Source: Acutalibacteraceae bacterium
Lineage (GTDB): Bacteria; Bacillota; Clostridia; Oscillospirales; Acutalibacteraceae
DNA: 31,835 nucleotides
NCBI GenBank assembly: GCA_045603945.1
Contig: JAZUNC010000016.1
Span: 1-31,835 of the forward strand
Reading direction: 5' to 3'
A program made the translations under genes and the position numbers. The notes below the pieces were generated by a model. The model saw only the letters and a program-made list of their open reading frames with translations, made no database searches and was not told the DNA's origin. Shown one piece after another: positions 20,924-25,096 of the stretch. How positions within the stretch are numbered: position 1 is the first letter of the stretch; every line of letters begins with the position of its first letter.

Positions 20924-21419
20924 CTATTTCGCTTTCACTCATTGCTATCTCAGGTGTTGCATCGTTGAGTATGTTAACACCCAACGAAAGCGACCCCTGT
21001 ATCTCGGCTTGCTGTTGCTGCTTGTTTTGCCATCGCTCGGGAGCGATGTTAGTCAAAAGGAAAATGGCAGCACCGACATTAGGCGGCACATCGACATCCT
21101 CCGTTATCTGCTTTTTAATTACGGGGTTGCCGTCTTTATCACTCGTGTACTCCGTCTTTCGTCGCACCCACTTATACCCCTTTGCCGACCTTGCAAGGCT
21201 GTCTACCAACTCGTGTTCGAGGTTAGCGGCAAAGTGCTTTTGTGCTTCCGCTATCATTTTAGCGAAGTCCTCTCGCTTCATCCATCGCTCGAATGTCCGC
21301 TCAGATATGCCGAAGTGCTTACTTAACGATGCCACGGTTGCACCTCCATGCAGCTTTAATCCGTTGCATATTATCCACTGACGGATGTCGGCAAACATTT
21401 CCGTTGTTAATTTACTCAT
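20910..21419 (-). CDS. terS: Terminase small subunit (HTH)
   Basis: HTH LSKHFGISERTFERW and VPPNVGAAIFLLTN motif; directly upstream of TerL. Likely start MSKLTTEM at 21419. Confidence 0.7.
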   Translation of the reverse strand: MSKLTTEMFADIRQWIICNGLKLHGGATVASLSKHFGISERTFERWMKREDFAKMIAEAQKHFAANLEHELVDSLARSAKGYKWVRRKTEYTSDKDGNPVIKKQITEDVDVPPNVGAAIFLLTNIAPERWQNKQQQQAEIQGSLSLGVNILNDATPEIAMSESEIDAER

Positions 21420-22341
21420 CGTCATTTTTACTTCTCTTAGGTTCATTTGTAAATGGTGCATCTTCGGGGTATGCATCGTACTCGATATTACCCTTACACC
21501 CATATACTCGTAATATCTTCGGAGCTATGTATCTATAACTAATCCGATGATGCAATCTACCGCCATTCATCTTTTGCCTCTCTGCGTGTATAGCCGACGG
21601 GTACGTTATAGGGCATACGAGCGACTTGTTCAACAGCTTACACTCCTTGTATAAGTCCGTTAAGCCCCCAGTTGCCGTCACACTCTGCACCTGATTTAAG
21701 ACCAATCCCGTACGAAAAGATGCTATAAAATACCCCTCGTTTAATGCTGCGACAAATTGCGACGTGTCGTCATCTTGCACACCTCGCTCACCCCTATATA
21801 CATAAGGCATTAATACAAAAGTCGTATTCATTATTTTTGCACGCAAAAGCCCTCTATCCAATTCTCCTGCATTAAATAGTTCACCCGTTTGCGAAAGCCC
21901 GAACAACCCGACGTGATAACGCCTCATCATTTTCTCGACTCCTCCAAAAACAATCTCGAAATTTTTTAAAGTTGCTTGCCCTTTGTACTTCCCGAAAGGT
22001 CTGTTTTCGTAACAAACAGTGTCGTCATCTATTACCACATAAAAATCTATGGATAAAGATTTTGCGATGTCGTAAAACATGTTACGAGCTTGCCCGGCAC
22101 TGCGACGAGCTTTACTCGGACGATGGATATAATCATATCGCAGACGAGCCTCCCTCATGTCAAAGATATGTAAATTAAAGCCGTATGAGCTTGCAACTTC
22201 CTTATAACTTTCAACATCATCCGCTTCATCATCTATAACGACATGTAGCTTATCGACGGGATAACCTATTTTCACGAAATAATTTACCGTTCTTATATTC
22301 TTTGCTCGGTGGTACGACGGTATAAAAATATTCGGCATCAT
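21412..22341 (-). CDS. GT-A fold glycosyltransferase, TAGT/GREB1-like
   Basis: IFIPSYHRA, AGQARN, VVIDDD (DxD-type) and DDDTSQ motifs. Confidence 0.7.
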   Translation of the reverse strand: MMPNIFIPSYHRAKNIRTVNYFVKIGYPVDKLHVVIDDEADDVESYKEVASSYGFNLHIFDMREARLRYDYIHRPSKARRSAGQARNMFYDIAKSLSIDFYVVIDDDTVCYENRPFGKYKGQATLKNFEIVFGGVEKMMRRYHVGLFGLSQTGELFNAGELDRGLLRAKIMNTTFVLMPYVYRGERGVQDDDTSQFVAALNEGYFIASFRTGLVLNQVQSVTATGGLTDLYKECKLLNKSLVCPITYPSAIHAERQKMNGGRLHHRISYRYIAPKILRVYGCKGNIEYDAYPEDAPFTNEPKRSKNDDE

Positions 22342-23120
22342 AACTCGTTTTGTTTATTCGCAATCCTCAACAACTCATCTTGTATAAATCCGTCAATGCT
22401 TCCATCAACCAACACTAAACGCAATCTCTCCATTACACGCTGCTCCTCCTCAGAGGCATTAAATGCATAGTAGTTCGCTACATTTTCGAAATCAATTTTA
22501 ATAAATCGATACGCGAAAAGTTTAAGTACTTCTCTCTGCTCTTCCGTTAATTTATATTCTTCGAGTGCTTTTATTTTCGCATTAAACTTCTCCAAATTAA
22601 CACAATCAACGAGCTTTATATTTGGCTTCTCCTCTGGCTGGTAATAAATGTCACTAAACGAAACATCCGATAAAATCTCCGTCATGGGACTGCTTCCTGA
22701 ATCCTGCGAGGATGCCTCACTCTCAATTGTTACTCCCCAATCCTCGGGCTTTACATTCCATCGCTCGGCTGCTACCTGTAATTCGTCGTAGTTCCATGAA
22801 AGATTTGCGGCACTCGTAGCGTTATCTGCGAGTGCCATGCGTCGCCCCTCTTCACTATCTATGTCGAGGTCTGTACGACGAACCACAACAAGCTCATCTC
22901 CTGTTGTGTCAATTATGCGGATGTTTTTGCGATTGAGAGACCTTGCAGCCTCCACGATGCCGTTGCCGGCGATAATGTTGTTGTCCTTGTCGACAACAAT
23001 TGAACGACCGAAACCGTTCTCCCTCACCGACTTTCGGAGTAGCTCCATGCCCTCCTCGGTGTGGTCGTTGAAGTTGTGTGCGTCATAATGTAACGCGTCA
23101 ATGTCATTATATTTGTTCAT
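22338..23120 (-). CDS. ParB/Srx-like domain protein with an additional C-terminal helical domain
   Basis: HNFNDH...SVRENGFGRSIVVDKDNNIIAGNG...MALADN. Likely start MNKYND at 23120. Confidence 0.75.
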   Translation of the reverse strand: MNKYNDIDALHYDAHNFNDHTEEGMELLRKSVRENGFGRSIVVDKDNNIIAGNGIVEAARSLNRKNIRIIDTTGDELVVVRRTDLDIDSEEGRRMALADNATSAANLSWNYDELQVAAERWNVKPEDWGVTIESEASSQDSGSSPMTEILSDVSFSDIYYQPEEKPNIKLVDCVNLEKFNAKIKALEEYKLTEEQREVLKLFAYRFIKIDFENVANYYAFNASEEEQRVMERLRLVLVDGSIDGFIQDELLRIANKQNEL

Positions 23121-23155
23121 AAGCCTACTCCCGTAGGCGATGTAGGTGTGCGAAA

Positions 23156-23195
23156 CAAAGGTAGCAATTTTATTTGAAAAGCAAAATAAAATCGC
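23156..23195 (-). promoter_or_regulatory. Putative late-operon promoter with overlapping inverted repeat
   Basis: Minus-strand TACCTTTG (23156-23163) and TTTG (23182-23185); inverted repeat attttattt / aaataaaat at 23167-23192. Confidence 0.5.
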
Positions 23196-23226
23196 ATTTT
23201 TTAAGAAAAAAAATATTTGATAATAT

Positions 23227-23257
23227 TTTGTATTTTCAATAATAATTACTATCTTTG
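23227..23257 (+). promoter_or_regulatory. Consensus Bacteroidota sigma-A promoter of accessory cassette 2
   Basis: TTTG (23227-23230), 19-nt spacer, TATCTTTG (23250-23257). Confidence 0.75.
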
Positions 23258-23261
23258 TAGT

Positions 23262-23452
23262 GCAATCATAGAGTGATTGCAACGGATAATTCCTGATGCC
23301 GAGAAAAGAAAGGAATAACCCCCAAAATCTTACACGATGAAATTTAGAATTGAAGTCGAAGTTAAGAATTGGAAATTTAAAGTCTTAACAATTAAGATTG
23401 TTAAGTAGTTTCCAAAGGGGGTGGACGGGGTCAACGTCCGCCCCCTCTTGGG
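23262..23452 (+). ncRNA. Putative structured leader or small RNA (four hairpins)
   Basis: Stems: gcaatca-tagag-tgattgc; attcct...aggaat; cttaacaat-taag-attgttaag; ccaa-agggggtggacg...cgtccgccccct-c-ttgg. Confidence 0.5.
23336..23408 (+). pseudogene. Small amphipathic peptide frame one base out of register with its ATG
   Basis: ATG AAA ATT TAG at 23336, whereas the +1 frame reads KFRIEVEVKNWKFKVLTIKIVK-stop. Confidence 0.4.
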
Positions 23453-23479
23453 GGTTATGGTGCAAAAGTAAACAAAATT

Positions 23480-23686
23480 ATGGAAACCGAAAACAAAACA
23501 GAAAAGAAAAGTAATCGCGGAGGTAAACGAGTAGGAGCAGGACGAAAACCGAAAGGTGAGGCAAAACGTATAACACTTGGCTTCGTAGTATCGGAGACCG
23601 CTGCTAACAACCTCAAAGCGTATGCCGAGCGATTGGGCAAGACACGCAACGATGTTATCAATGAACTTTTAGAGGGGCTTATTTGA
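23480..23686 (+). CDS. Ribbon-helix-helix-type DNA-binding protein with N-terminal RGGxRxGAGRK motif
   Basis: NRGGKRVGAGRKP, beta strand RITLGFVV, then helices ETAANNLKAYAERLG-KTRNDVINELL. Confidence 0.7.
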   Translation: METENKTEKKSNRGGKRVGAGRKPKGEAKRITLGFVVSETAANNLKAYAERLGKTRNDVINELLEGLI

Positions 23687-23700
23687 CCCCTCTTTTTTTT
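23671..23700 (+). terminator. Intrinsic terminator overlapping the RHH stop codon
   Basis: agagggg-cttatttga-cccctct followed by a T-run. Confidence 0.7.
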
Positions 23701-23719
23701 CTCTCCGACAATAACGACA

Positions 23720-25096
23720 TCACTTATACCTGTCAACAACCGCCTTAATAGCTCTCATCAAACACTCTTGCGTGTCTACTTTACCGGCAAGAGCTTTCGA
23801 CACCTCAACGTCCATCGTCCCCTCAACTAGCAAATGATAAACGTATACGGGCTTTGTTTGCCCCTGACGATTGAGCCGTGCATTCGCCTGTTGGTATAAC
23901 TCCAACGCCCAGTTAAGCCCATACCACACGATTATATTGCCTCCTCTCTGCATGTTAAGACCGTAAGCCGTCGATGCAGGGTGTGCAAGCAACACCTCTA
24001 TCTCGCCGTTATTCCAACGCTCTACGCAGCTGTCATCATCCATCACAACGACATTATAACCTTTTAGTGCTTGCTTAATGCGTGGTATTTCGTGCTTGAA
24101 TTGATAAAATAACAAAACGGGGTTGCCGTTTGCCTCCTCTATAAGCTCTGCTAACGCCTCTATCTTGCTATCATGTAGATGCTTTACATTTTTGTCGGCA
24201 TCATAGATGGCACCGCTTGCATATTGCAGCAGCTTGTTGGAGAGGGCTGCCGCATTAACCGCAGATATAGAGCCGTCCTCCTCCTCCGGGAGAGCAAGTA
24301 CTTGCTCCTTTGCAAATTGCTCATAATTCGCCCTCAGCTTGTCGGAGAGAGGTATCATTACATCGTGATAACTGCAAGCAGGGAGCGACAAATAATCCTC
24401 TGCTTTCATCGACACACAAAAGTCGGCTATCGCATTGTAGATGCGTTGCTCTCCATCGCTTTGCAGCTTGTAATCAAATACTACTTGCCCGTTTGTCCTG
24501 CCCGGTCGAAAATAATTTGCTCGGTAGTGCGTTATATATTTCCCAAGAGCGTTGCCTTGGTCAAGCAAATATACTTGCCCCCATAAGTCAATTAAGCCGT
24601 TAGGTGCTGGTGTTCCCGTCAAACCTACTACCCTCGCTAAGCGAGGGCGTATAGTTCTCATTGCCTTCCAGCGAGCCGACTTGTGATTTTTAAAACTCGA
24701 AAGCTCGTCAAGCACCACCATATCGAAAGGAATACGACGCCCACTATAATGAGCTACAAGCCATTGCACGTTTTCGCGATTCGTTATGTAAATATCTGCT
24801 TCACTATTTAACGCCTTGATACGCTGCTTCTCCGTGCCAAGGACGCGGATAGCTTTCAGATCCGATAGATGCTCCCACTTCTCTATCTCTTGCAGCCATA
24901 CCGATTGAGCAACCCTGAGAGGTGCTATTACAAGCACCTTGCTTATTTCGAGGTTATATATCAACCGCTTTATAGCCGTTAATACGCACACCGTTTTGCC
25001 AAGCCCCATTTCGAGAAATAGCCCGACATAAGGCGTCTCGATAATCTTCTCTATCGCATAACGTTGATAATCGTGCGGCTTAAAAGTCATCTGCAT
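23720..25096 (-). CDS. SNF2-like (SF2) helicase
   Basis: LEMGLGKT, VVLDELS, LTGTP and QANARLNRQGQ motifs. Confidence 0.9.
   Translation of the reverse strand: MQMTFKPHDYQRYAIEKIIETPYVGLFLEMGLGKTVCVLTAIKRLIYNLEISKVLVIAPLRVAQSVWLQEIEKWEHLSDLKAIRVLGTEKQRIKALNSEADIYITNRENVQWLVAHYSGRRIPFDMVVLDELSSFKNHKSARWKAMRTIRPRLARVVGLTGTPAPNGLIDLWGQVYLLDQGNALGKYITHYRANYFRPGRTNGQVVFDYKLQSDGEQRIYNAIADFCVSMKAEDYLSLPACSYHDVMIPLSDKLRANYEQFAKEQVLALPEEEDGSISAVNAAALSNKLLQYASGAIYDADKNVKHLHDSKIEALAELIEEANGNPVLLFYQFKHEIPRIKQALKGYNVVVMDDDSCVERWNNGEIEVLLAHPASTAYGLNMQRGGNIIVWYGLNWALELYQQANARLNRQGQTKPVYVYHLLVEGTMDVEVSKALAGKVDTQECLMRAIKAVVDRYK

Follow-up and report, generated by a model that had tools for sequence, protein, structure and literature searches.

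Type I toxins arrest growth or kill when they are overexpressed, and their antisense RNA relieves this effect. Most families of these toxins are hydrophobic and have a membrane-spanning helix, and hok/sok of plasmid R1 and aapA1/IsoA1 of Helicobacter are type I loci with a long-range lock on the mRNA. In the immI region of phage P22, control is exerted by the ribbon-helix-helix (RHH) repressors Arc and Mnt together with the sar antisense RNA, and the regulated product encoded after arc is an antirepressor of 300 residues. The acr-aca operons have a strong promoter of their own, a small effector gene in the first position, the gene of a small DNA-binding autorepressor in the last one, and a terminator. 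To our knowledge, the acr-aca effectors described so far are folded proteins of 50 residues or more, and we know of no structured leader or antisense promoter among the features of these operons. As a type I toxin-antitoxin (TA) system is understood here a small translated toxin gene, usually of less than 60 codons, whose mRNA pairs with an antisense RNA (PMC8594479). Such systems were reported only from Proteobacteria, Firmicutes, and Tenericutes, plus a cyanobacterial candidate (PMC12390103). In our literature search, no report of a type I system in Bacteroidota was found. Antisense RNAs are also present in the copy control units of plasmids, with CopA in copB-tap-repA of R1 and antisense RNA II in copG-repB of pMV158 (PMC5717011).

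The locus described here is located in a window of 31,835 nt, which is the whole stretch of DNA that was analysed. Its conserved elements show a short predicted transcription unit of a Bacteroides-type promoter, a folded leader with a gene of 23 codons, a gene for an RHH protein, and an intrinsic terminator (Table 1). With a micro-gene inside a structured leader and an RHH repressor gene behind it, the locus resembles the type I loci in its proposed gating, and also the units of R1 and pMV158, and it departs from each of them in several defining points. It shares with hok/sok and aapA1/IsoA1 a very small ORF in a highly structured mRNA, and, similar to the lock of hok and aapA1, a helix joins the sequence just upstream of the start codon to the sequence past the stop codon. 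As at type I loci, a candidate cis-antisense promoter is placed behind the ORF, and the unit is a small self-contained module carried by phages and islands. The predicted ORF also falls below the size of 60 codons, and its start, frame, and stop are conserved. Unlike type I toxins, the peptide is cationic and beta-periodic, without a membrane-spanning stretch and without toxin homology, and, unlike in the classical loci, a co-transcribed RHH repressor gene is present downstream.

The copy control units of R1 and pMV158 are similar in that a small repressor, a short leader ORF, and a candidate counter-transcribed RNA form one compact unit, and CopG of pMV158, itself an RHH protein, ranks first among the structural matches of the 68-residue protein encoded here. 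In contrast to both plasmids, the leader ORF is placed ahead of the repressor gene, and there is no replication initiator gene downstream. P22 immI is likewise a temperate-phage accessory region in which an Arc-type RHH repressor occurs with a small antisense RNA (a candidate in our locus), but the only other product here is a peptide of 23 residues, and its gene is placed before the RHH gene. A predicted promoter of its own, a gene in the effector position first, a candidate autorepressor last, and a terminator, carried by phages and islands, is the arrangement of acr-aca operons, from which the locus differs by a 23-residue peptide without any anti-defence family match, by its structured leader, and by the antisense promoter candidate. 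The locus is here tentatively read as a tightly gated cassette of a peptide effector and a repressor, type I TA-like in its gating, with the peptide as a candidate effector; this reading comes close to being probable.

Table 1. Features of the cassette and their positions in the window.
Feature	Position	Strand	Description	Conservation
Bacteroides-type promoter	23227..23257	+	-33 element 23227-23230, 19-nt spacer, -7 box 23250-23257	box kept in aligned relatives
H1	23261..23281	+	perfect 8-bp inverted repeat with 5-nt spacer, at expected transcription start	
Leader segment	23282..23314	+	purine-rich; its minus strand is a U/C-rich tract right after P1	nearly invariant
P1, 5' arm	23315..23325	+	long-range 11-bp helix; ends 12 nt ahead of micro-ORF start	invariant in 13/13
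Micro-ORF (P0023)	23337..23408	+	23 codons and stop codon (23406-23408); cationic peptide with beta-strand periodicity	
H3 around H4	23369..23415	+	H3, 23369-23377 with 23407-23415; H4, 23384-23392 with 23397-23405	
H5	23416..23446	+	G+C-rich hairpin just 3' of micro-ORF, no U tract behind it	
P1, 3' arm	23448..23458	+	21 nt ahead of RHH start codon	
-7 promoter box match	23463..23470	-	candidate cis-antisense promoter	13/13 relatives; single change at a free position
RHH gene	23480..23686	+	68 codons; disordered basic N-terminal tail of 28 residues, then RHH domain	
Intrinsic terminator	23672..23700	+	6-bp G+C stem, 9-nt loop containing the RHH stop codon, eight T	

The micro-ORF is open throughout. 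An earlier note on this DNA had described it as a gene one base out of frame, with the start codon at 23336 and a run of four A behind the ATG. The ATG is coded at 23337-23339, and the sequence after it reads three A and three T; translation from 23336 stops at once, while the frame of 23337 needs no base removal to reach its stop codon after 23 codons. The early stop was only apparent, because the ATG was placed at 23336 and four A were counted. With the frame intact, slippage, recoding, and assembly error have nothing to explain. An out-of-frame toxin gene, whether silenced, read by a +1 frameshift, or mis-assembled, finds no support except in that base count, and has next to no probability given an ORF that is open to 23408 and intact in the window and in 12 out of 13 relatives. 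Relatives in frame, which had been suggested as a check for a repaired form, were indeed found, and the window copy is in frame just as they are. The peptide obtained in the note by "repair" is identical to the one actually encoded, and it ends, as stated there, just ahead of a GC-rich hairpin, with a gap of 8 nt. A frameshifted gene or pseudogene, tried as a candidate, was rejected on the uninterrupted frame that follows the start codon, from 23337 to 23408. The note also proposed an alternative ORF of 30 aa at 23296-23388; it has a stop at codon 15, and its ATG is missing in 5 of the 13 relatives. What is found at this place is a leader ORF of 14 codons (23296-23340), the stop of which overlaps the micro-ORF start codon. 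Lacking the start codon in these five relatives, it is probably not functional.

Thirteen distinct copies of the leader were obtained from the contigs of RHH-protein relatives. The micro-ORF start codon is present in all of them, 12-14 nt past the same arm of the P1 helix. The ORF is 20, 22, 23, or 27 codons long, with all length differences in multiples of three, and 12 of the 13 copies share the position of its stop; the remaining copy has lost this stop and runs to 42 codons. Substitutions were counted and pN/pS was computed within groups of ORFs of equal length. Differences at the first, second, and third codon positions were in the ratio 45:16:77 in the micro-ORF frame, where pN/pS is 0.26; the two remaining frames of the plus strand have values of 1.05 and 3.03. 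For the N-terminal half alone, which is the half without base pairing, pN/pS is 0.21, and for six non-overlapping sequence pairs it is 0.32 (Fisher p 3e-6). A low value (0.34) is also obtained for the antisense frame whose wobble positions coincide with those of the micro-ORF; what decides for the plus-strand ORF is therefore the conservation of start and stop and the indels of three or its multiples. Together with these, the substitutions show a real small peptide gene at 23337-23408, with purifying selection on its amino acids. The note had named conserved nucleotides or structure with a lost frame as the pattern that would speak against its reading; frame, start position, and coding-type substitutions are all conserved. 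A minus-strand ORF opposite the micro-gene was also considered. Its frame is open, but its start and end are unconserved and the open stretch varies from 21 to 75 codons, and it was rejected. In the 42-codon copy (L198:648-866), the ORF without the micro-ORF stop continues across the G+C hairpin, with its end 8 nt ahead of the RHH start. This copy is a natural variant with read-through, or it is in decay, or its sequence contains an error.

All versions of the peptide in the relatives have a net charge from +3 to +6, hydrophobic residues that alternate with polar ones, and a Lys-Ile-Trp-Lys-like motif in the centre. The alternation of hydrophobic and charged residues recognized in the earlier note is confirmed as beta periodicity, with a net charge of +5 and a helical moment near zero. 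The largest hydrophobic moment is found at the angles of a beta strand (150-175 degrees), vs a helical moment of about 0.1, and GRAVY is 0.07 (window copy). Charged residues occur at every 2-4 positions, and no membrane-spanning (uncharged) stretch is present in any version. P0023 has no family match in Pfam, NCBIfam, or PADLOC, i.e., to no toxin, defence, or anti-defence family. It is the physicochemical pattern that is conserved in the peptide and not a fixed C-terminal arrest motif. Of the small toxin proposed in the note, the small peptide gene thus stands as real, and the toxin part is weak, with neither a transmembrane stretch nor a known toxin family. These same absences, of a membrane-spanning stretch and of any toxin or defence family match, count against the effector or type I reading.

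Folding of the plus strand (23259-23480) gave a z-score of -6.8. The consensus structure of the 13 copies contains H1, P1, H3, H4, and H5, with 94.5% of cells paired, vs 40-50% in controls with slid partners, and with a covariation score of 0.144, vs at most 0.065 in the controls. The 23 cells changed on both sides are located in H1 (one pair, in four relatives), H4 (three pairs), and H5 (two pairs, with 98% of cells paired). H3 and H4 are formed by the micro-ORF itself, with its 3' half, and by the sequence that surrounds its stop codon. The mean pairwise difference is 0.098 in the leader segment, 0.00 in the P1 5' arm, and 0.06 in the P1 3' arm, far below the 0.455 at the third codon positions of the micro-ORF; the leader and the P1 arms are therefore constrained as nucleotides. 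Because P1 and most of the leader never vary, P1 is a helix that covariation cannot support. Searched with the covariance models of Rfam 15, the whole window had no match that reached the gathering score; with E relaxed to 10, only chance-level rows were obtained in the leader region, and no true match was found in the tRNA/tmRNA scan.

A strong conserved structure with covariation in three helices would also be expected if the locus were a structured RNA without coding function, such as a cis-regulatory element or a small RNA, and its open frame only incidental. The flanks are better conserved than the ORF, and the 5' arm of H3 codes for a part of the best-conserved peptide motif, which is perhaps kept for pairing. 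Such an RNA is improbable, however, with the start codon in all 13 relatives, length changes in multiples of three, and a low pN/pS not only overall but in the unpaired half too, and without an Rfam family match even at the relaxed E-value. For a locus with no Rfam or protein family, comparative support is unusually clear for both the translated peptide and the conserved RNA fold.

The helices also fold on the minus strand (z-score -6.1), all of them being DNA palindromes. The element could act at the DNA level, as repressor operators or as a replication or packaging site, formed by palindromes in the phage replication module, and the operator-like overlap of H1 with the expected transcription start and the site between the genes for a ParB-like protein and a helicase agree with this. 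Nevertheless, a DNA-level element is very improbable. The cassette also occurs on chromosomes and islands, well away from any replication module, the coding signature would be left unaccounted for, and one strand is favoured by G-U pairs and by consensus energy. The energy is -48.3 kcal/mol on the plus strand vs -38.1 kcal/mol on the minus strand, where the consensus loses H4; the preference of the G-U pairs for the plus strand is a modest one, and P1 is extendable by three pairs on the minus strand. H1 itself may be either a 5' RNA hairpin or a repressor operator, and the RNA and DNA readings are indistinguishable here.

From the -33 element and the -7 box, we infer that the region upstream of H1 acts as the cassette promoter. 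The micro-ORF and the RHH gene are on this one promoter, with no called terminator-like site between them and with one terminator after the RHH gene. The terminator scan of 23000-23900, minus strand included, called no terminator-like site; its loop limit was 8 nt, so the terminator in Table 1, with its loop of 9 nt, escaped it. A hairpin with a T run is present at the place of this terminator in 12 of the 13 aligned sequences and is not evident in L199. Both start codons have A at -3 and -13, and in addition A at -12 (micro-ORF) or at -6 (RHH gene). In Bacteroidetes, an A at -3 acts as a positive determinant (PMC6847099). The purine-rich tract at 23301-23312 is 92% complementary to 23692-23703, which is the T run of the terminator and the bases following it. 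A pairing of the 5' leader with the terminator tail, as a 5'-3' end interaction, was considered; it is present in the window, but the bases past the T run are unconserved among the relatives, and it was rejected.

In the AlphaFold model of the 68-residue protein, pLDDT is 90-96 across residues 31-60, and the domain has two helices. The top Foldseek matches are the RHH domains of CopG, ParG, Arc, TacA, and PutA, and the top 50 are almost all RHH domains, with the exception of two MukBEF-MatP rows. CopG was the best match (probability 0.98, rmsd 1.4 A, 36 columns), and all E-values are above 0.1, the domain being so small. By this model, the protein has the strand-helix-helix fold of the RHH (CopG/Arc/MetJ) superfamily. 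No Pfam match was found for it, and the PDB profile search was empty. The NCBIfam model of the BrnA antitoxin scored 19 bits at a cutoff of 60, which is a weak, sub-threshold match that agrees with RHH.

Nearly all genes of the window run leftward, whereas the unit of promoter, leader, RHH gene, and terminator runs rightward. Its left flank consists of a ParB-like gene (22338-23120) and a gene for TET-associated-type glycosyltransferase, and genes for SNF2 helicase, VRR-NUC-like nuclease, and VapE-type primase are on the right. The ParB-like and glycosyltransferase genes head a leftward operon (21412-23163 in the window). The -7 box of this operon (23156-23163, minus strand) mirrors the cassette promoter, with an inverted repeat at 23155-23180 and 23233-23258.

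In the favoured cassette of effector and repressor, the 5' arm of P1 would lie within the span covered by a ribosome initiating at the micro-ORF. When a ribosome footprint was imposed on the start or the stop of the micro-ORF, the constrained fold lost P1. As P1 is lost in this model with either span forced to be single-stranded, P1 and translation of the micro-gene should exclude each other, and P1 would so hold the peptide synthesis down, as the long-range locks do in the mRNAs of hok and aapA1. The RHH protein, with its CopG/Arc architecture, probably represses its own cassette promoter through the H1 palindrome at the transcription start. The presence of the same RHH gene in leaderless contexts behind SIR2 counts against a cassette of effector and repressor.

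The main rival is a pure cis-acting leader peptide, the translation of which would melt H3, H4, and P1 and so tune the RHH output, with a released peptide that has no function. We consider it possible, if rather unlikely. By analogy with the control of repA by tap and CopA in plasmid R1, the antisense RNA may in this case block the leader ORF. As with tap and CopA, a short ORF is placed upstream of another gene on a shared transcription unit, here with one promoter, one terminator, and no terminator called in between. The stop codon is inside helices, which a translating ribosome must remodel, and the A at -3 and -13 is common to both starts, A at -3 being positive in Bacteroidetes (PMC6847099). 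Moreover, the circuits of R1 and pMV158 join a repressor with an antisense RNA and, in R1, with a leader peptide (PMC5717011). Unlike the stop of R1 tap, however, the micro-ORF stop is 64-71 nt from the RHH start (12 of 13 relatives) and not adjacent to it as in coupled systems, so classical coupling is unlikely, and the peptide sequence is under selection. The RHH initiation region is mostly unpaired already in the modelled closed fold (probability unpaired 0.67), which would leave little evident to switch. Amino-acid selection acts on the whole peptide, including its N-terminal half, a physicochemical pattern is kept where an arrest peptide would have a fixed C-terminal motif, and the RHH gene functions elsewhere without the leader. 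If the micro-ORF is a leader peptide only, the locus would be a compact model of upstream-ORF control in bacteria without Shine-Dalgarno pairing.

The minus-strand -7 box reported in the earlier note was found again as a match to the Bacteroides -7 promoter box. The window has 47 matches to this box vs 24.5 expected, and a single match is therefore weak evidence; this one, however, is kept in all 13 distinct relatives. In one subgroup of relatives, the box was retained while six neighbouring bases changed. It is located 4 nt before P1, and a U-rich tract follows P1 on the minus strand; in the alignment, the box is missing upstream of the leaderless RHH copies L171 and L174. A cis-antisense RNA would start at about 23458, with one arm of P1 first and the other arm near its end, and it would terminate in the U-rich minus-strand counterpart of the purine-rich leader. 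The terminator scan, which called no site on the minus strand, counts against this. If this RNA exists, it would explain all three of the most conserved non-coding pieces: the leader, both arms of P1, and the sequence around 23463-23470. Judged from the sequence, such an RNA would probably add to the repression of the micro-gene. That the locus is an antisense-gated peptide-toxin module in Bacteroidota, the first such one, on temperate phages and islands, with an unusual cationic beta-strand toxin in place of a membrane helix and with the co-transcribed RHH repressor as a second layer of control, at the level of transcription, is unlikely. Its setting is that of gut Bacteroidales phages, in which post-transcriptional control and toxin-antitoxin biology are poorly charted. 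Should the peptide be an effector that is checked threefold, through the lock in the RNA, the antisense RNA, and the repressor, this would be type I-like control in a new phylum and with a new peptide chemistry.

The RHH protein has 22 relatives with 68-92% identity in a large protein collection. On the phage-type contigs L168, L169, L198, and L202, the cassette is placed between the ParB-like and SNF2 genes, as in the window, and in L199 it has the same position with two small genes intervening. In L167, it is between uvrA and the gene of an AMP-binding enzyme on a contig of 55 kb, and the L175 copy, on a Barnesiella contig of 175 kb, is next to the gene of a HicA toxin and to a polyvalent protein of a kind typical for mobile elements. 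The cassette was single-copy in the two genomes checked. No true match was obtained in blastn of the region against phage and plasmid records, and none of about 160 IMG/VR loci reached through the SNF2, ParB-like, and RHH proteins (flank identities 37-65%) carried the leader or the peptide. Exact and gapped DNA patterns (three in IMG/VR and one in JGI metagenomes) gave no matches, and a protein-profile scan of JGI metagenomes found one true relative, which is leaderless. In 400 genomes of the same family, the DNA search returned A/T-rich chance matches only, and a pattern search of 400 genomes sampled from the same order had no match outside the genome of the window itself. The contexts of the relatives show a predicted cassette that is portable among temperate phages of Bacteroidales and genomic islands.

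In the island contexts L214:4259-9012 (a Barnesiella MAG, contig of 175 kb) and L197:381-1242, the cassette and a HicA toxin gene point away from each other. A further neighbour of the cassette in L214 is a polyvalent protein of 1142 residues with PBECR3, LPD3, and ART-PolyVal domains. A leaderless RHH gene of 66-68 residues without micro-ORF was found in L171:784-1701, L205:484-1755, L206, L207, L209, L210, and L174. It is located 21 nt behind a SIR2 gene of 231 residues and is followed by a DUF5053 gene. As the RHH gene is found without the leader beside SIR2, it is an independent module joined to different partners.

Micro-genes of 20-27 codons go unannotated by gene callers, and the one described here was either missed or covered by an extended neighbour gene. 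Public gene calls of the RHH gene are often stretched upstream to 86-104 residues over the hairpin region (P0001, P0004, P0009, P0014, and P0017). The micro-ORF itself is almost never called; L167 is the only contig with a small call there (43 residues, L167:1295-1426), which overlaps the micro-ORF without matching it.
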